The notes under the pieces were generated by a model. That model was not told the origin of the DNA, did no database searches, and saw only the letters and a list, made by a program, of their open reading frames with translations. From the NCBI GenBank assembly GCA_934539585.1, contig CAKTCT010000032.1, positions 1-24,000 of the forward strand: a stretch of DNA of 24,000 bases, written 5' to 3'. Made by a program: the position numbers and the translations under genes. This document shows, piece after piece, positions 12,086 through 20,940 of the stretch. The first letter of the stretch is position 1. Each line of letters opens with the position of its first letter. Source of the DNA: an uncultured Oscillospiraceae bacterium. GTDB lineage: Bacteria > Bacillota > Clostridia > Oscillospirales > Ruminococcaceae.

Positions 12086-12104
12086 GCGCCGAAGGCGCTT
12101 AACC

Positions 12105-12720
12105 GGCACCACGTCAGGATGCCAGCCATCCACGTCAAGCCGCCGCGTATCTCCAAATCCTCATACAGGAGTCAAAGCGGTAAAAAGTGCTGCACGGTTG
12201 CCTACTGTCTGAGCACCGATAGCGGCGGCGGGAAGTGTCGCGTGCGGATATGTTTATCCAGCGCCTGCCGCCATTGGGGTCTTTAGGGGCGCAGCCCCTA
12301 AACGGTTTTTCTCCCCAATCTTTTTTCCGTAAAAAAGATTGGGTGCCCTGGTAGGACATAACAAATCTGTACAAACGTAAGTAGCCGCATAGGCTAGTAG
12401 GGCTTGCCGATTACGAATTAAAATCGGCAGCGCTACCGGCCTATGCGGCTACGTTCGCTTTGGATTATTGATAGGTCGGTCATAGCACCCCTTCTTTTCC
12501 CGCGTGGGAAAAGAAGGGGGAGAAAAGGACGCTCGGGTGGCTCCCGCCCCCCGAGGCCCCCTAAAGTCGCGCCTGAGGCTTCGGAGGACCCCGATATTAC
12601 CTCGCGGTGGACACGGCCGCCGCAATTGGTGGGGAGACAGTAGGCATCCAGCTGCCACTTTCGGACGTTTTGTTCCTCACGATGGGCTTTGGGGGCAGGC
12701 GGCGGCCTGACGTGGGTACC
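12105..12720. repeat. Copy A of a ~600-bp quasi-palindromic intergenic element (U-type arm ~12131-12412, apex ~12413-12421, inverted V-type arm ~12422-12716)
   Basis: Homologous to 16173-16806 (inverted) and 20337-20940 (direct). Terminal inverted motif GGCACCACGTCAGG…CCTGACGTGGGTACC. A 14-bp perfect central stem pairs 12381-12394 with 12439-12452. Local hairpins at 12282-12302, 12314-12343 and 12488-12519. Confidence 0.85.
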
Positions 12721-12721
12721 A

Positions 12722-13708
12722 TTATTTCTCACCCAAAATTTCTCGTAATACTTCTCTCGACACCAAAATGTCCTCTTTCGGAATTTTCTCCCAGGAAAAT
12801 TCCGGGATCAGCTCGGCGGCTTTTACCGGCTCCGGGCGGTCCAGCAACCCCGCCAGCCAGGCTAACAGCCCCAGAACCGCCTCCGGCCCGGTTACCCGCT
12901 GCCGCAAGGCCCCTAAATCCAGGTCGCCGTCCCGCTTGGACAGCCTCCGCCCGTCCTCGGCGGCCAGCAGGGGAATGTGCCCGTACCGCGGCGGCGAAAA
13001 TCCCCACAAGGATTGCAGCCAGATCTGCCGGGGACTGGACGAAAGCAGATCGCTGCCCCGGACCACCTCGGTGACGCCCATCAGCGCGTCGTCCAGGGCC
13101 GCCGCCAGCTGATACGCAAAGACCCCGTCCGCCCGCCGGAGGATAAAATCCCCGCAATCCCGGCTGAGCAGCTCCCGCTGGGGCCCGTAGTGGAGGTCGT
13201 CAAAGGCCACCCACTCCTCCGGGACCCGGATGCGGGCCGCGGGCTTCCGGGTCCTGGCCCGGAGCGCCGCTTCCTCCGGCGTCAGGTTCCGGCACCGGCC
13301 GGTGTACAGAAACCGCCCGTCGGAGCGGTGGGGCGCTTCCGCAGAATGGAGCTCCGTCCGGCTGCAAAAACAGGGGTATAAAAGCCCCATGTCCTCCAGC
13401 TTCCGGAAATATTTCCGGTAAATCTCCGTGCGCTGGCTCTGGAAATAGGGGCCGTTGGGCCCGCCTGCGGAGCACCCCTCGTCCCAGTCAAGACCCAGCC
13501 ACCGGAGGTCCTCCTCCAGAAGCCCGGCGTAGGCCCGGGGCGCACGCTCCGGGTCCAGGTCCTCGATGCGGAGGATCACCCGCCCGCCCTGGGACCGCGC
13601 GGAAAGCCAACTCAAAAGGGAACAGAACACGTTCCCCAGGTGCATCCGCCCGCTGGGCGTGGGCGCGAACCGCCCGGTAACGGCAGCCATGGCCATCATC
13701 CTTTCCAA
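12722..13708 (-). CDS. gluQ: tRNA glutamyl-Q(34) synthetase (GluQRS; truncated GluRS paralog)
   Basis: GRFAPTPSGRMHLGN (HIGH-like), ILRIEDLDPER, FAYQLAAALDDALMGVTEVVRGSDLL and LSKRDG (KMSKS-like). ~320 aa with no anticodon-binding domain. The exact start is uncertain (TTG at 13708 or a downstream ATG). Confidence 0.85.
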   Translation of the reverse strand: MERMMAMAAVTGRFAPTPSGRMHLGNVFCSLLSWLSARSQGGRVILRIEDLDPERAPRAYAGLLEEDLRWLGLDWDEGCSAGGPNGPYFQSQRTEIYRKYFRKLEDMGLLYPCFCSRTELHSAEAPHRSDGRFLYTGRCRNLTPEEAALRARTRKPAARIRVPEEWVAFDDLHYGPQRELLSRDCGDFILRRADGVFAYQLAAALDDALMGVTEVVRGSDLLSSSPRQIWLQSLWGFSPPRYGHIPLLAAEDGRRLSKRDGDLDLGALRQRVTGPEAVLGLLAWLAGLLDRPEPVKAAELIPEFSWEKIPKEDILVSREVLREILGEK

Positions 13709-13711
13709 ACT

Positions 13712-15595
13712 TTATACCGGGAGCTCATAAAGCCGGAACCACTTGAGCCCCGGCAGCCCCGATTCCAGCGTCCCCGCCCGGCGGAAGCCATAGGTCTCGT
13801 ACAGCGCGATCGCCGGGGAATTTTCCGTAAAAACGTCCAGCCGGAGGGCCTTGCAGCCGGTCTCCCGGCCCAATTTCCGGGCATGATCCAGGAGAAACCG
13901 CCCGCCTCCCCGCCGGGAGCACCCCGGGTCCACGCTGAGGGTGTGGACCGCCAGGACCTGCTCCTCCTCCGCCGGGACCTGCCAGGAGCCGCCGGCCCAG
14001 AACCCGGCCTGGTCGTGGTTCAGGATCACCGCCCCCGCCGGAAGGCCGCCGTCCTCCAGCAGCCAGAGGGTCCCGGCGGAAACGGTGGCCTCGGCCTCCT
14101 CACGCTCGGGATAAACCCCGCTGCGCCAGCCGCTGGGATTGACCAAGGCCCGCTCCGCCCGGCGGCAGATGCGCTCCCACAGGTCCGCCACCGCCGGAAT
14201 GTCCTCCCGGCGGGCCTGCCGGACCCGGAACTCCGGCTTCCGCGGGTACTCCGGGGAAAGCATGGGCCGGTGCTCCGGCAGCCAGCGGAGCAGCGCCGCC
14301 TTTTCGTTGGGGCACTCCCCATCCAGCACCCCTTCCAGTAGCTCCTCCAGCGACGCGCCGATCTCCCGGCCTGGGGCGACCCCCGCCGCCAGCAGGTCCT
14401 TGCCGCTGACGGCCAGCTGCTCCAGGGAAAGGCAGTCCCCGGCCTCCAGAATGTCCCGGGCCAGGGCCTCCAGCTTGTCCAAAAGGGAGCCCCGGTCGAA
14501 AGCCGGATTCTTAGCCCGGTCGTCGGCCCGCTTGACCTGCAGAAGGGCGAAAAAGTCCCCCGGCCCCAGCTCCCGGAGCCACCGGCACAGGACCGGCCGC
14601 TCCGGGGGAACCGCTGCGTCGTGCCACCGGACCAGGGTCCGGACCCGGCGGGCAGTCTCCCCGTCGGCGTCCAGGCGGCGGAGGACCTCCCTTGCGATGC
14701 CCTCGGAGGCGGCGGGGTGGCCCTTGAAATGCCCCCGGCCGCTGCGGTCCGTGAAGAAGCAGGCGGGCTTGCCGATGTCGTGGAGCAGCATGGTCAGCCG
14801 CAGCACCGGCTCCGGCGGGACCCCCTCCACCGCCCGGACCGTGTGCTCGTACACGTCCCAGAGGTGGTAGGGCGTGCGCTGGTCAAAGCCCCGCAAGGGC
14901 TCCAGCTCCGGGATGATCACCGCGAAGACCTCCGGAAATTCCCGGAGCACCCGCCCGGCCCCCGGCCCGCAGAGGAGCTTCAAAAGCTCCGGAAAAACCC
15001 GCTGGGGAGCCACCAGCCGGAGCCGTTCCCGATTCCGGCGAAGGCTCTGGGCGGTGGCCTGGTCCAGGGAAAAGTCCAGCGCCGCCGCAAACCGCAGCCC
15101 CCGGAGAATCCGCAGCGCGTCCTCCCCGAACCGCCGGTCCGGGTCCCCCACGCAGCGGATGATCCCCGCCGCCAGGTCCTCCCGGCCCCCGAAGCAGTCG
15201 GTGATTCCCTCCTCCGGGGACCAGGCCATGGCGTTGACGGTGAAATCCCGCCGGGCCAGGTCCTCCCGGAGGGAACGGGTGAAGGCCACGGAGTCCGGCC
15301 TGCGGCTGTCGGAGTAGGGCCCGTCCACCCGGTAGGTGGTGATCTCCAGGGGGCTGCCATCCAGGAGGACCGTCACCGTGCCGTGCTTTTCCCCGGTGGG
15401 GATCACCGGGACCCCGGCAAAGACCTCCCGGACCTCCTGGGGAAAGGCGGAGGTGGTGATGTCCCAGTCGTGGGGATCCCGCCCCAGCAGGCAGTCCCGG
15501 ACGCAGCCCCCAACGGCCTGGGCGGCGTACCCGGCGTCCCGGAGCCGGGCCAGGGCCTCCCGGACCGGTCCGGGGCAGGCTTCCGGCCGGATCAC
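13712..15595 (-). CDS. cca: CCA-adding enzyme (tRNA nucleotidyltransferase, class II, with HD domain) fused to a C-terminal GNAT acetyltransferase domain
   Basis: The GTG start overlaps the ybaK stop (GTGA). Head domain: AVGGCVRDCLLGR…DWDITT…RRDFTVNAMA. HD motif: LLHDIGKP. The C-terminal ~165 aa (about 13712-14215) carry a GNAT motif: HTLSVDPGCSRRGGGRFLLDHARKLGRETGCKALRLDVF…ALYETYGF. The ORF-track extension to 16099 is rejected. Confidence 0.85.
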   Translation of the reverse strand: MIRPEACPGPVREALARLRDAGYAAQAVGGCVRDCLLGRDPHDWDITTSAFPQEVREVFAGVPVIPTGEKHGTVTVLLDGSPLEITTYRVDGPYSDSRRPDSVAFTRSLREDLARRDFTVNAMAWSPEEGITDCFGGREDLAAGIIRCVGDPDRRFGEDALRILRGLRFAAALDFSLDQATAQSLRRNRERLRLVAPQRVFPELLKLLCGPGAGRVLREFPEVFAVIIPELEPLRGFDQRTPYHLWDVYEHTVRAVEGVPPEPVLRLTMLLHDIGKPACFFTDRSGRGHFKGHPAASEGIAREVLRRLDADGETARRVRTLVRWHDAAVPPERPVLCRWLRELGPGDFFALLQVKRADDRAKNPAFDRGSLLDKLEALARDILEAGDCLSLEQLAVSGKDLLAAGVAPGREIGASLEELLEGVLDGECPNEKAALLRWLPEHRPMLSPEYPRKPEFRVRQARREDIPAVADLWERICRRAERALVNPSGWRSGVYPEREEAEATVSAGTLWLLEDGGLPAGAVILNHDQAGFWAGGSWQVPAEEEQVLAVHTLSVDPGCSRRGGGRFLLDHARKLGRETGCKALRLDVFTENSPAIALYETYGFRRAGTLESGLPGLKWFRLYELPV

Positions 15596-16068
15596 TGGGC
15601 GATGGCGGCGGTCTGGCCGCGGGTGAGCTTTAACAGGTCGTCGGGGGAAAGCTCCACCTGGGTGCCGATCTTCCCGCCGCTGACCATAATGGTGGCGCAG
15701 GACCGGGCGCTTTCGTCCAGGGTTGTGCGGAAGGCTTTTTTCATCCCGATGGGCGAGCACCCGCCCCGGATGTAGCCGGTGACGGCGTTGATCTCGCTGA
15801 CATGAATCATCTCGATGGACTTTTCCCCCACAGCCTTGGCGGCGGCCTTGAGGTTCAGCTCCTTGTCCGAGGGGAGGACGAAGACGAAGTAGTTCCGGCT
15901 GGCCCCCCGGGTCACCAGGGTCTTGAAGACCCGTTCCACCGGCTGGCCCAGCTTTCCGGCCACGGAGACGGCATCGATCAGGCCGTCGTCGTGGGAGTAG
16001 TAGTGGGGGGTATAGGGGATTTTTCCTTTTTCCAGGATTCGCATGACGTTGGTTTTTTCTGCTGACAT
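15592..16068 (-). CDS. ybaK: YbaK/EbsC-type aminoacyl-tRNA deacylase (Cys-tRNA(Pro) deacylase family)
   Basis: 158 aa. MSAEKTNVMRILEKGKIPYTPHYY…FKTLV…VFVLPSDKELNLKAAAKAVG…VTGYIRGGCSPIGMKK…. A strong RBS (AAGGAG) lies upstream of the ATG at 16068. The ORF-track N-terminal extension into the repeat is rejected. Confidence 0.85.
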   Translation of the reverse strand: MSAEKTNVMRILEKGKIPYTPHYYSHDDGLIDAVSVAGKLGQPVERVFKTLVTRGASRNYFVFVLPSDKELNLKAAAKAVGEKSIEMIHVSEINAVTGYIRGGCSPIGMKKAFRTTLDESARSCATIMVSGGKIGTQVELSPDDLLKLTRGQTAAIAQ

Positions 16069-16100
16069 GAAAAAGCTCCTTTGTAAGGATTTCTCCCACC

Positions 16101-16129
16101 AGTATACCACGTTTCCGTGAGAAAGTCGA
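16101..16129 (-). promoter_or_regulatory. Candidate sigma-70-type promoter of the ybaK-cca-gluQ operon
   Basis: On the minus strand: TCGACT, 17 nt, TATACT, with an extended -10 (TGGTATACT). It lies ~30 nt upstream of the RBS and just outside repeat copy B. Confidence 0.5.
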
Positions 16130-16172
16130 GACAGTAGCGATTTCCCGGCGGAAACCGGAAAATGCCTGGGTG

Positions 16173-16806
16173 GGTGCGCTAATCGCACCAGGTCAGGCCG
16201 ACGCCTGCCCCCAAAGCCCATCGTGAGGAACGAAACGTCCGAAAGTGGTAGCTGGATGCCTACTGTCCACGCACCAATTGCGGCGGCCGTGTCCACCGCG
16301 AGGTAATATCGGGGTCCTCCGAAGCCCCAGACGCGACTTTAGGGGGTCTCGGGGGGCGGGAGCCCACCGAGCGCCCTTTTCTCCCCATTCTTTTCCCGCG
16401 CGGGAAAAGAATGGGTGCGATGAACCACCTATCGATAATCCAAAGCGAACGTAGCCGCATAGGCCGGTAGCACTGTCGAATCCGAATCGAATTTGGCAGT
16501 TCCTACCAGCCTATGCGGCTACTTACGTTTGTACAGATTTGTTTTGTCCTACATAGCGCACTTACTCTTTTCCCCGGAGGAAAAGAGTAAGCAGAAAAGT
16601 CCGTTTAGGGGCTGCGCCCCTAAAAACCCCAATGGCGGCAGGCGCTGGATATGGATGACCGCACGCGACACTTCCCGCCGCCGCTATCGGTGCTCGGACA
16701 GTAGGCAACCGTGCAGCACTTTTGGTCGCTTCGATTCCTGTATGAGGATTCGGAGATACGCGTCGGCTTGACGTGGGTATCGGTGCGGCGGCCTGACGTG
16801 GGTGCC
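16173..16806. repeat. Copy B (inverted relative to A and C) of the ~600-bp quasi-palindromic element (V-type arm ~16189-16478, U-type arm ~16495-16776, plus a duplicated terminal motif to 16806)
   Basis: The same invariant blocks as copy A in reverse order: GCCTACTGTC 16258-16267, GTAGCCGCATAGGC 16451-16464, GCCTATGCGGCTAC 16509-16522, GACAGTAGGC 16697-16706. Hairpins at 16384-16415, 16561-16591 and 16604-16624. Confidence 0.85.
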
Positions 16807-16810
16807 AGCC

Positions 16811-16835
16811 GCGGGATTTCCTCCGGAAATCCCGC
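16811..16835. other. Perfect 11-bp stem-loop GCGGGATTTCC-TCC-GGAAATCCCGC abutting repeat copy B
   Basis: The perfect inverted repeat was read directly from the sequence. No T-tract follows it. It sits between the element end (16806) and the -35 of the downstream promoter. Confidence 0.4.
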
Positions 16836-16842
16836 GAATCTA

Positions 16843-16871
16843 TGGACAAGCACCGGAAAATTCAGTATAAT
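16843..16871 (+). promoter_or_regulatory. Sigma-70-type promoter of the AI-2E/cls/membrane-protein operon
   Basis: TGGACA (16843-16848), 17 nt, TATAAT (16866-16871). It lies 32 nt upstream of the ATG, with RBS AAAGAGGAA. Confidence 0.6.
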
Positions 16872-16903
16872 AGCCTTATAACCTTTAGGAAAAGAGGAAC
16901 GCT

Positions 16904-18067
16904 ATGGAATGGAATCGAACCGTTTGGCTGAAACTGTCTTTGACGGCGGCCGGCGTGGTGGTTTTGTATTGGGCGCTCAATAACCTGAATACGCTGCGAA
17001 CGGCCCTGGGAACCATCATGGGCATCCTGTCCCCCTTCCTGGTGGGGCTCTGCATCGCCTATGTCCTGAGCGTCCCGATGCGCGGATTTGAAAAGCTGCT
17101 GTTCCGCCCGCGAAAACAGCGGAAGGGATCGCTCCGCCTCCATTTGGAGCGGTTCAAGGGACCTATCTGCCTGATCCTCTCCATCCTGACGGTGCTGCTC
17201 CTGGTGGCGGCGGTGCTGCTTCTGGTGGTTCCGGAGCTTGGGCGCACCGCTGTGACCATCCGGGACAGCCTCCCGGGCTTTGCGCTCCGCATGCAGGAGT
17301 TTGGCGGCCAGCTCCTGAACCGGTACCCGGCGATTCTCCAGACCGTCCAGAAAGTGGACTGGACCGGGCTCTGGGACAGCGTCCTGACCTTCCTGAAGTC
17401 CGGCGTGGGCAGCGTTCTGGGCTCCACCGTAGGGGTCATCGGCTCGGTGTTCAACGGCGCCACCGCCTTTTTTCTGGGCTGCGTTTTCGCCTGCTATGTC
17501 CTGCTCCAGCGCCAGACCCTGGCCCGGCAGCTGAAGCAGCTGTGCTACGCCCATCTCCGGGAGGACCGCGTGGACCGGCTCCTGGAAATCTGCGCCCTCA
17601 CCGACCGGACCTTCACCCGGTTTATCACCGGCCAGTGCGTGGAGGCGGTGATCCTGGGGACCATGTTCTTTGTGTCCATGAGCATTTTCCGTTTCCCCTA
17701 TGCCCTGATGATCTCGGTGCTCATCGCGTTTCTGGCCCTGATTCCGGTGTTCGGCGCCTTCGTCGGATGCTTTGTGGGGGCCCTGCTGATTCTGGTCGGC
17801 GATCCGATGAAGGCCATCTGGTTCGTTGTGCTGTTCCTGGTCCTCCAGCAGATCGAGGGAAACCTTATTTATCCCCGGGTGGTGGGCTCCTCGGTGGGCC
17901 TGCCGGGAATCTGGGTGCTGGTGGCCGTCACCATCGGCGGCAGCGCCTTCGGAGTCCTCGGAATGCTGGTCATGGTCCCGGCTGGTTCGGTGCTTTACTC
18001 TCTGGTCCGGGAAAACACCGCAAAACGGCTGAAACAGCGGGGAACTCCGCCCAAAAAGTACCGCTAA
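16904..18067 (+). CDS. AI-2E family transporter (PerM/UPF0118 permease)
   Basis: 387 aa with ~8 TM helices. Family-typical C-terminal core …LVLQQIEGNLIYPRVVGSSVGLPGIWVLVAVTIGG…. Confidence 0.85.
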   Translation: MEWNRTVWLKLSLTAAGVVVLYWALNNLNTLRTALGTIMGILSPFLVGLCIAYVLSVPMRGFEKLLFRPRKQRKGSLRLHLERFKGPICLILSILTVLLLVAAVLLLVVPELGRTAVTIRDSLPGFALRMQEFGGQLLNRYPAILQTVQKVDWTGLWDSVLTFLKSGVGSVLGSTVGVIGSVFNGATAFFLGCVFACYVLLQRQTLARQLKQLCYAHLREDRVDRLLEICALTDRTFTRFITGQCVEAVILGTMFFVSMSIFRFPYALMISVLIAFLALIPVFGAFVGCFVGALLILVGDPMKAIWFVVLFLVLQQIEGNLIYPRVVGSSVGLPGIWVLVAVTIGGSAFGVLGMLVMVPAGSVLYSLVRENTAKRLKQRGTPPKKYR

Positions 18068-18077
18068 AGGAGCGTTT

Positions 18078-19610
18078 ATGAAAAAAATCCTGCAATTTCT
18101 CACCCACCGCCTGGTGGTCTGCGTCCTGCTGATGCTGGTCCAGGCGGCAGTGCTGGTGGTCATGATCCTGGAATTCCAGAAGTACTTCGGCTACTTCTAC
18201 ATTTTCTGCATCGTTTTAAGCGTTCTGGCCGTCCTCTATATCATCAACAACCGCAGCAACCCGGCCTATAAAATCGCCTGGATCATCCCCATCCTGACAG
18301 TGCCGGTCTTCGGCGGCCTCATGTACCTGATCTTCGGCGGCAACCGCCTTTCCCGCCGGGAGCGGAAAAAGATGTCCACCGTGGCCCAGCGCTTCCAAAA
18401 GGCCGCCAAGGCGGTCCCCAACGCCATGGAGCAGCTGGAGGAGGAAAACGAGGACGCCGCCCACCAGGCCCGGTACATCCTGGACTACGCCGACGCCCCG
18501 CCCTTCCGGAACACCTCTGCGGAGTACCTTCCCACCGGCGAGGCCAAGTTTGAGCGGATGCTGGAGGAGCTCCAGAAGGCGGAGCGCTTCATCTTCTTAG
18601 AGTACTTCATCATCTCCGAAAGCTATATGTGGGACCGCATCCTGGAGGTCCTCAAGGAAAAGGCCCAGGTCGGCGTGGACGTCCGGGTCCTCTATGACGA
18701 CCTGGGCTCCATCATGACCCTCCCCCCGAAATACGACCGCCAGCTGGAGGAGTGGGGCATCCACTGCCGGGCCTTCAACCCCTTTGTGCCCATCCTCTCC
18801 CTGCGGTTCAACAACCGGGACCACCGGAAAATCTGCGTCATCGACGGCCGGGTGGGCATCACCGGCGGCGTGAACCTGGCCGACGAGTATATCAACAAGC
18901 GGACCATCCACGGCCACTGGAAGGACGCCGCCATCCTCCTCAAGGGCGACGCGGTGTGGAACCTGACCCTGATGTTCCTGAGCCTCTGGGACGACCTTTC
19001 CGGGGAGAAGGAGGACTTCACCCCCTACCGCTCCGCCCCCGCTCTGGAGCCGGTCCCCTCCGACGGCTACGTCCAGCCCTACACCGACAGTCCCCTGGAC
19101 AACGAGGCCGTAGGCGAAACGGTGTATATCAACCTGATCTACAAGGCCCGGAAGTACGTCTATATCAACACCCCCTACCTGATCCTCAGCAGCGAGATGA
19201 CCACGGCCCTCTGCACCGCGGCCAAATCCGGCATCGACGTCCGGATCGTGACCCCCCACATCGCGGACAAGTGGTACGTCCACGCCGTGACCCGGGCCAA
19301 CTACCCGGTCCTGGTGGAGGCCGGGGTCAAAATCTACGAGTACACCCCCGGCTTCATCCACGCCAAGACCTTCGTGGTGGACGGCGAATACGGCGTGGTG
19401 GGGACCATCAACCTGGACTACCGCAGCCTTTACCTCCACTTTGAGTGCGCGGTGTGGCTGTACCGGTGCTCCTGCATCGCCGCCATGGAGGCGGACTACC
19501 TGGAGACCCTGAAGGTCTGCACCCCAATCACAGTGGAGGACTGCCGGAACGTCAGGTGGTACGTCCGGCTGGGGCGGTCCATTCTGCGGGTCTTCGCGCC
19601 CCTGATGTAA
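18078..19610 (+). CDS. cls: Cardiolipin synthase (PLD superfamily, two HKD motifs)
   Basis: 510 aa. Two N-terminal TM helices. HKD motifs HRKICVIDGRVGITGGVNLADEY and HAKTFVVDGEYGVVGTINLDYRS. Confidence 0.9.
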   Translation: MKKILQFLTHRLVVCVLLMLVQAAVLVVMILEFQKYFGYFYIFCIVLSVLAVLYIINNRSNPAYKIAWIIPILTVPVFGGLMYLIFGGNRLSRRERKKMSTVAQRFQKAAKAVPNAMEQLEEENEDAAHQARYILDYADAPPFRNTSAEYLPTGEAKFERMLEELQKAERFIFLEYFIISESYMWDRILEVLKEKAQVGVDVRVLYDDLGSIMTLPPKYDRQLEEWGIHCRAFNPFVPILSLRFNNRDHRKICVIDGRVGITGGVNLADEYINKRTIHGHWKDAAILLKGDAVWNLTLMFLSLWDDLSGEKEDFTPYRSAPALEPVPSDGYVQPYTDSPLDNEAVGETVYINLIYKARKYVYINTPYLILSSEMTTALCTAAKSGIDVRIVTPHIADKWYVHAVTRANYPVLVEAGVKIYEYTPGFIHAKTFVVDGEYGVVGTINLDYRSLYLHFECAVWLYRCSCIAAMEADYLETLKVCTPITVEDCRNVRWYVRLGRSILRVFAPLM

Positions 19611-20336: not shown

Positions 20337-20940
20337 GTGCGCCAATCGCACCACGTCAAGCCGACGCGTATTTCCGAAGTCCCATACAGGAATCGAAGCG
20401 GTAAAAAGTGTTGCACGGTTGCCTACTGTCTGAGCACCGATAGCGGCGGCGGGAAGTGTCGTGTGCGGATATGTCTATCCAGCGCCTACCGCCATTGGGG
20501 TTTTTAGGGGCGGGAGCCCCTAAACGGTTTTTCTCCCCAATCTTTTTTCCGTAAAAAAGATTGGGTGCCCTGGTAGGACATAACAAATCTGTACAAACGT
20601 AAGTAGCCGCATAGGCTAGTAGGAACTGCCAAATTCGATTCGATTTCGGCAGCACTACCGGCCTATGCGGCTACGTATGTTTTGGATTATCGATAGGTGG
20701 TTTCTTGCACCCCTTCTTTTCCCGCGTGGGAAAAGAAGGGGGAGAAAAGGACGCTCGGTGGGCTCCCGCCCCCCGAGACCCCCTAAAGTCGCGCCATAGG
20801 CTTCGGAAAGCCCCAATACTGCCTCGCGGTGGAAACGGCCGCCGCAATTGGTGCGTGGACAGTAGGCATCCAGCTGCCACCTTCGGACGTTTCGTTCCTC
20901 ACGATGGGCTTCTGGGGCAGGCGGCGGCCTGACGTTGTAC
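20337..20940. repeat. Copy C (same orientation as A) of the ~600-bp quasi-palindromic element (U-type arm ~20352-20632, V-type arm ~20644-20936)
   Basis: By eye ~15 differences from copy A over the ~275-nt U arm; the V arm is more diverged. Invariant blocks at 20421-20430, 20603-20616, 20661-20674 and 20858-20867. Hairpins at 20503-20524, 20536-20565 and 20710-20741. Confidence 0.85.

Follow-up and report, generated by a model that had tools for sequence, protein, structure and literature searches.

The window, by which we mean the whole 24,000-nt stretch of DNA analysed here, derives from an uncultured human-gut Clostridia species whose nearest named relatives are Oscillospiraceae at ~53% protein identity (the nearest named adenine deaminases, ~53% identical, are those of Faecalispora and Caproiciproducens). 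Among ordinary chromosomal genes, comprising those for DUF3137 and LemA proteins, a GluQRS-like protein, a CCA-adding/GNAT protein, an AI-2E transporter, cardiolipin synthase, a CmpB-like protein, adenine deaminase and AraC regulators, we noticed three copies (A, B and C) of a non-coding foldback repeat of ~586 bp (586-590), with ~90% identity between copies. The copies, together with the terminal inverted repeats and central hairpin of copy A, are positioned as follows.

12130 to 12715, plus strand: copy A, running from U arm to V arm
12130 to 12146, plus strand: left terminal inverted repeat of copy A, CCACGTCAAGCCGCCGC
12373 to 12460, no strand assigned: central hairpin of copy A, at the symmetry centre (equivalents 16443-16530 in copy B and 20595-20682 in copy C)
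12699 to 12715, plus strand: right terminal inverted repeat of copy A, GCGGCGGCCTGACGTGG
16188 to 16776, minus strand: copy B, inverted
20351 to 20937, plus strand: copy C

Layout, gene context and distribution of the element

Similarity between copies ends at the 17-nt terminal inverted repeats, CCACGTCAAGCCGnCGC and GCGnCGGCCTGACGTGG, and the whole element forms a long imperfect palindrome comprising two ~290-nt arms, each with local stem-loops H1 and H2 at mirror positions. Because the U arm aligns with the reverse complement of the V arm over its entire length, at ~65-70% identity, we take the arms to be old inverted duplicates. They are overall only ~70% complementary and, when set against each other, show per copy ~200 Watson-Crick pairs, 18 G.T, 13 A.C, ~44 transversion mismatches and ~36 gapped positions. 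The core of the central hairpin is an invariant 14 bp, GTAGCCGCATAGGC / GCCTATGCGGCTAC, with an apex that varies. Open reading frames of the element are not conserved, differing from copy to copy, and gave no match in Pfam; Rfam returned no family at the gathering score, the hits at E-values up to 10 being only microRNA-like chance hairpin matches. No promoter-like site was found inside any copy, and nothing similar to the element turned up in plasmid and phage BLAST or in viral contigs (two patterns, no matches).

Copy A lies between convergent gene ends, with the stop of a 74-aa ORF at 12086 and that of the GluQRS-like gene at 12722-12724, and copy C is likewise flanked by convergent ends, those of the CmpB-like gene and adenine deaminase, both stops being at a distance of 24-26 nt. 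Stops at sites A and C are 7-44 nt away, so that transcripts must extend into the element there. The 433-aa ORF at 16862-18163 (minus strand) is probably spurious, the real gene being a plus-strand AI-2E transporter at 16904-18067; copy B is therefore located between the starts of two diverging genes, those for tRNA_edit/CCA-adding and the AI-2E transporter. Taking all sites with both flanks known, four of five are between convergent gene ends. The 795-aa ORF at 13712-16099 (minus strand) is represented in other strains by two genes, tRNA_edit and then CCA-adding/poly(A) polymerase-GNAT.

The element was found in one species only, at a density of four copies in ~39 kb of one genome, the fourth site (D) being 9 kb past the window. 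Other strains carry it at the three sites of the window and at site D, with further sites on small contigs (L125, L126, L128, L130 and L142-L148). No insertion polymorphism was seen between strains at sites A-D, all strains examined being filled, and no transposase gene was found in the ~100 kb of the host species examined. Two sister species (77% and 73% protein identity) had no copy in 32 kb (L140 and L141), syntenic site D included; neither a target-site duplication nor a clean empty site was definable, the flanks at the syntenic D site being too diverged to read a duplication. Short-read contigs often end inside the element. A spurious element ORF used as query retrieved only eight small contigs, all with the same family, and a scan of genome contigs with the unspecific 14-mer GTAGCCGCATAGGC gave 120 chance matches and no real copy. 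Four of eight metagenome matches to the central hairpin (L127, L129, L131 and L132) were rejected as unrelated soil and marine hairpins, which share with the element just the 12-nt inverted pair TAGCCGCATAGG / CCTATGCGGCTA and no other similarity.

Variant arrangements were also seen. In the subfamily of L142, L144, L147 and L148, the outer U-side arm resembles that of the V side (~74% identity) and is joined to the usual U-type H1 and H2, which implies recombination between arms or modular assembly. A ~75-nt insertion with two extra hairpins (GCAAAGTCGCaaaGCGACTTTGC and AGCATTTTCCATCACaagTGATGaAAAATGCT) takes the place of part of the V-arm H1 in two loci (L121, about 150-270; L148, reverse complement, 3' end). 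At L126 (2570-2933), a copy missing 16 nt at the start of the U terminus directly adjoins part of a ClpB-like coding sequence (..LIRLDMSEYMEKHS); the copy could have inserted into a gene, or the metagenome contig could be chimeric. The syntenic intergenic region of one sister species (L140, 1940-2120), where the element is absent, harbors several short, perfect but unrelated hairpins in a row; among them, CTTAGGGGCagaGCCCCTGAG resembles the U-arm H1.

Additional repeats adjoin both ends of copy B.

16101 to 16187, minus strand: extension beside the V end of copy B, containing part of a second repeat (~150 nt) as well as the small hairpin GGTGCGattagCGCACC
16785 to 16836, no strand assigned: outside the U end of copy B, a duplicated terminal motif (16785-16807) and the 12-bp perfect hairpin CGCGGGATTTCCtccGGAAATCCCGCG (16810-16836)

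The extension overlaps a promoter-like site of the downstream gene. The second repeat ends in the V terminus (GGGGCAGGCGGCGGCCTGACG) and lies in tandem beside V ends (window 16101-16187; L133 1790-1950; L145, reverse complement, right of the element); a ~150-nt repeat sharing this terminus is as expected if the terminus is a recognition site. Its small hairpins also have compensated variants (CGCGGACgatGTCCGCG, CGCGGGCgttGCCCGCG and CGCGGGCatcGCCCGCG, as well as TGTCGC..GCGACA vs. TATCGC..GCGATA). Extra partial terminal motifs (CCACGTCAGG.. / ..CCTGACGTGG) flank element ends as short tandem units (12107-12119 and 16785-16807 in the window; element flanks of L130 and L133); in many cases a small hairpin comes next, GTGCG-N5-CGCAC, whose loop is CCAAT-like.

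Local hairpins and the retention of pairing

The local hairpins of the three copies, for which no strand is assigned, are the following.

12282 to 12302: U-arm H1 of copy A, 9-bp stem, loop GCA
16604 to 16624: U-arm H1 of copy B, loop TGC as read at 16613-16615, which is GCA on the other strand
20503 to 20524: U-arm H1 of copy C, loop GGGA
12314 to 12343 (copy A), identical at 20536 to 20565 (copy C): U-arm H2, allele a, CCCAATCTTTTTTccgtAAAAAAGATTGGG, 13-bp perfect stem
16561 to 16591 (copy B): U-arm H2, allele b, CTTACTCTTTTCCccggaGGAAAAGAGTAAG, 13-bp perfect stem with five pairs changed vs. allele a
12488 to 12519 (copy A), identical at 20710 to 20741 (copy C): V-arm H2, version 1, CCCCTTCTTTTCCCgcgtGGGAAAAGAAGGGG, 14-bp perfect stem
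16384 to 16415 (copy B): V-arm H2, version 2, CCCATTCTTTTCCCgcgcGGGAAAAGAATGGG, C-G to A-T at pair 4
12532 to 12555 (copy A), equivalents 16348 to 16371 (copy B) and 20754 to 20777 (copy C): V-arm H1, 10-bp stem

Perfect hairpins (stem of at least 12 bp, loop of 3-6 nt) number seven in the window, compared to a mean of 0.02 expected from 100 dinucleotide-preserving shuffles. Six of these had been given in a preliminary description of this DNA, and the seventh adjoins copy B; the hairpin sequences and coordinates in that description were all correct, with perfect stems of 13-14 bp, and every hairpin is stable by predicted single-strand folding (z-scores of -6 to -9 for H2). Also borne out were its report that five of 13 pairs of the U-arm H2 differ between copies A/C and B, all five being compensated, and that of a C-G to A-T double change in the V-arm H2 of copy B, which we place at pair 4. 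In the same copy, the V-arm loop is changed from GCGT to GCGC, rendering 16384-16415 a gap-free 32-nt perfect palindrome. For the U-arm H1, the stem is indeed kept while the loop varies, with the same halves (TTTAGGGGC/GCCCCTAAA) in all three copies, but the window has two loops (GCA and GGGA) rather than the three described, because copy B is inverted and its TGC is the reverse complement of GCA. The V-arm H1 has one constant internal mismatch.

Across 18 loci, 42 instances of H2 comprise only four stem versions.

U arm, version a: left half CCCAATCTTTTTT, right half AAAAAAGATTGGG
U arm, version b: left half CTTACTCTTTTCC, right half GGAAAAGAGTAAG
V arm, version 1: left half CCCCTTCTTTTCCC, right half GGGAAAAGAAGGGG
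V arm, version 2: left half CCCATTCTTTTCCC, right half GGGAAAAGAATGGG

Defects among the 42 instances were restricted to a 1-nt deletion (L137), an uncompensated A-to-C change (L146) and a half-deletion (L142), one each. Placed in register, the four versions differ at six of 13 pair positions, requiring at least seven paired changes, with none left unpaired. H1 behaves similarly: between arms three pairs differ (TTTA../..TAAA vs. CTCG../..CGAG), all compensated, and within the U arm there is one compensated pair change from C-G to T-A (L133, L138 and L139), with a T.G state in one copy (L142). The local hairpins thus stay paired while the stem sequence changes between arms and alleles; independent compensatory events are few, and the copies are related.

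A comparison of ten distinct full copies gave a consistent picture. In the stems of U-arm H1, V-arm H2, V-arm H1 and the central core (U-arm H2 having been set aside), five of 100 columns are variable vs. 121 of 459 elsewhere (Fisher p = 5e-7), i.e. the stems are about five times less variable, and four of the five variable stem columns make up two compensated pairs. The RNAalifold consensus, in which 98.5% of cells are paired, had seven pairs with both sides changed (shuffle mean 4.1; 0-2 pairs in slid controls) and 19 changed cells (shuffle mean 8.0; reached by none of 500 shuffles), but this whole-fold covariation is a modest signal and no more than supporting evidence, given the close relatedness of the sequences, from which the structure itself had been derived. 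As MAFFT aligned H2 versions a and b one column out of register, the U-arm H2 was not scored by RNAalifold or in the pair count, and its alleles were compared directly.

Haplotype blocks and the level at which hairpins are maintained

The flanks of the U-arm hairpin, described earlier as conserved, are not so: versions a and b are distinguished by 25-29 linked differences over a block of ~125 nt (element positions 119-244), non-palindromic flanks included. Which allele occupies a site varies between strains.

Site A: allele a in the window and L137; allele b in L133, L138 and L139
Site B: allele a in L133; allele b in the window and L134

Markers specific to each site are retained in the outer parts of the element throughout. 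Flanking genes of different strains are 97.5-100% identical, and the orthologous elements 91.8% (site A), 94.9% (site B) and 98.3% (site C), with the differences clustering in element blocks 119-244 and 272-349. No stepwise intermediate between H2 versions was found in 42 instances. These data reveal that the A/C vs. B contrast is one between two old linked haplotype blocks, not stepwise compensation in copy B, and that blocks of ~80-125 nt are swapped among paralogous copies by gene conversion or recombination, to which the arm chimaeras (L142, L144, L147 and L148) likewise point. Given block swapping and few old haplotypes, the contrast is not evidence of the stepwise compensated evolution read into it by the preliminary description; the alternative named there, that the B-type stem arose by a single replacement, largely agrees with the exchange of a ~125-nt block between strains with nearly identical flanking genes.

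With respect to DNA or RNA, the H2 stems are strictly Watson-Crick, without G-U in 42 instances, and the same hairpins form on both strands; among arm mismatches, G.T is not in significant excess over A.C (~18 vs. 13 per copy). By three clustered substitutions, the V side of the central stem has come to match the U side exactly, so that perfect pairing extends over 22 bp instead of 14, and mismatches beside the 14-bp core persist in most copies. Multi-base complementing changes and palindrome completion have been described as footprints of template switching (Monttinen and Loytynoja 2022, PMC8794818). Completion of the 32-nt palindrome and lengthening of the central stem make sense only at the DNA level, and fit template switching or arm-to-arm copying. 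On these sequence grounds, Watson-Crick strictness and palindrome-perfecting changes point to probable DNA-level maintenance and not to RNA-specific selection. There is still some room for an RNA role, considering read-through transcription, an RNA fold of the U-to-V strand that is 3-27 kcal/mol better in 10 of 10 copies, G-U intermediates among the long-range pairs and a weakly terminator-like U-arm H1. Of the earlier proposal that selection acts on the hairpin itself, as RNA or single-stranded DNA, we retain the kept pairing (42 H2 instances, stems five times less variable); its RNA-specific part found no support.

Candidate explanations and known systems

The explanation we favor, with about even confidence, is that of a new MITE/REPIN-type foldback repeat, in which constraint on single-stranded DNA folding and templated correction together keep the hairpins, and gene conversion homogenises the copies piecemeal. 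The constraint would bear on the hairpin or cruciform, and folding would be what a trans-acting enzyme, binding the shared terminus GGCAGGCGGCGGCCTGACGTGG, requires to recognise or mobilise the element. Template switching or arm-to-arm copying would then convert single mutations into restored or compensated pairs, and a role in RNA, if any (e.g. to terminate or insulate transcription reading through from adjoining genes), would come second. We also contemplated, as an unlikely proposition, a giant REPIN-like intragenomic replicator, whereby a dedicated and possibly domesticated enzyme that recognises hairpins copies a ~590-nt multi-hairpin foldback in its folded, single-stranded DNA form. Together with its shorter same-terminus relatives, this foldback would fill several per cent of the genome in a species common in the human gut, and selection would be on hairpin geometry only, not stem sequence.

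Function at the RNA level, with H1, a T-rich run and then H2, in this order on either inward-reading strand of the read-through transcripts, serving as bidirectional terminator, insulator or 3'-end stabiliser under selection for RNA pairing, we consider improbable. At sites A and C, the 7-44 nt between stops and element leave no space for separate terminators, four of five sites with known flanks are between convergent genes, the pseudo-symmetry presents the same motif order to transcripts from either side, and in each of ten copies the better RNA fold is that of the U-to-V strand. However, no read-through is expected at copy B, which has divergent promoters on its two sides, no RNA benefit comes from the GCGT to GCGC loop change, and neither G-U pairs in H2 nor a significant excess of G.T over A.C were seen. 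The U-arm H1 followed by CGGTTTTTCT was scored as terminator-like in just two copies (A and C), yet its T run begins 3-5 nt past the stem and the stem is T-upstream and A-downstream, the wrong orientation for a terminator; H2 has no T tail, and terminator-like sites overall (13 vs. 9.1 +/- 2.8 in shuffles) are not above expectation. We set aside the classic terminator reading as unlikely. A large structured non-coding RNA gene of ~590 nt with pseudo-two-fold symmetry, in which long-range U-V helices and side hairpins are all selected, appears most improbable. Both strands do fold at z-scores near -12, and the consensus fold pairs 98.5% of cells with seven covarying pairs, but this structure was built from the same closely related sequences, the copies are many, dispersed and in both orientations, no Rfam family matched (OLE, ROOL, GOLLD and HEARO included), no copy has a promoter-like site within it, and the arms are poorly complementary (~70%), each copy having ~44 transversion mismatches and ~36 gapped positions between them. 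On these grounds, we rejected the reading as an independent RNA gene.

A neutral origin was also considered, by a mechanism that is documented (PMC8794818): functionless quasi-palindromes would be perfected by replication template switching and gene conversion would spread the resulting alleles, mimicking compensatory evolution. Palindrome-perfecting changes are observed, alleles are few, lack intermediates and are exchanged in blocks, and unrelated neighbouring repeats of the same genome also have compensated perfect hairpins. We nevertheless hold this origin to be rather unlikely, as exemplified by the following: 1) H1 and H2 are kept in both arms despite ~30% arm divergence; 2) the stems are five times less variable than the rest of the element; 3) persistence of mismatches beside the central 14-bp core in most copies argues that symmetrisation is not general; 4) palindromes are deletion-prone, yet a half-deleted H2 was found in only one of 42 instances.

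If the model of a MITE/REPIN-type foldback repeat under folding constraint is true, the element would represent a repeat family not described before, of very high abundance in a lineage of uncultured gut Clostridia, its copies would be hotspots of recombination and gene conversion, and its practical effect would be to break short-read assemblies. It would also provide a natural test set, with structure kept and sequence free, for separating selection from template switching as the source of "compensatory" change. A word of caution is that, where a palindromic repeat is multicopy, covariation among a small number of its copies can reflect block exchange of old alleles and not stepwise RNA evolution.

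Among known systems, integron attC sites recall the element as proposed here, recognition being of a folded single strand and structure being conserved far above sequence. They measure 57-141 nt, with R and L boxes and extrahelical bases, and occur in arrays of promoterless cassettes beside an integrase. We rejected this candidate, as the size of the element is wrong and the DNA between copies is ordinary housekeeping sequence, with multiple genes in mixed orientations. Quasi-palindrome correction by template switching (the Ripley model; PMC8794818) yields the same clustered arm-complementing changes, palindrome-completing loop and compensatory-looking differences without intermediates; it is, however, a mutational mechanism and not an element family, and alone offers no explanation for four hairpins kept through ~30% divergence. 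Bacterial MITEs (e.g. Correia/CREE, RUP, ERIC and bcr1) have in common with the element terminal inverted repeats, absence of coding capacity, folding into long hairpins, dispersed intergenic copies ~90% alike and shorter relatives with the same termini. As a short (<~700 bp) non-coding sequence with terminal inverted repeats and many dispersed copies, the element has most of the features by which MITEs are defined, but it is a foldback over its whole length and not at its ends only, and is at the upper end of MITE sizes.

The REP/REPIN sequences of Pseudomonas and Enterobacteria, which go with a RAYT transposase (Y1 HUH) encoded by a single-copy gene that the repeats flank, are, like the element, extragenic, high-copy and non-coding. 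Again like the element, REPINs comprise two conserved inverted terminal motifs around a hairpin-forming spacer, which keeps its hairpin via compensatory changes (PMC3116915), evolve partly by gene conversion and are often positioned between convergent genes; furthermore, element termini occurring as short tandem units and then small hairpins (GTGCG-N5-CGCAC) recall REP clusters (BIMEs) and REP-like units. No sequence similarity between element and REPIN was found. A REPIN is about 70-110 nt with two inverted REP palindromes of ~20-40 nt, in contrast to the ~586 nt, nested local hairpins and diverged-duplicate arms of the element, and because size and architecture differ in this way, we have not filed the element as a REPIN. 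Overall, the element most resembles repeats of the MITE/REPIN type, with the REPIN as the closest known system.
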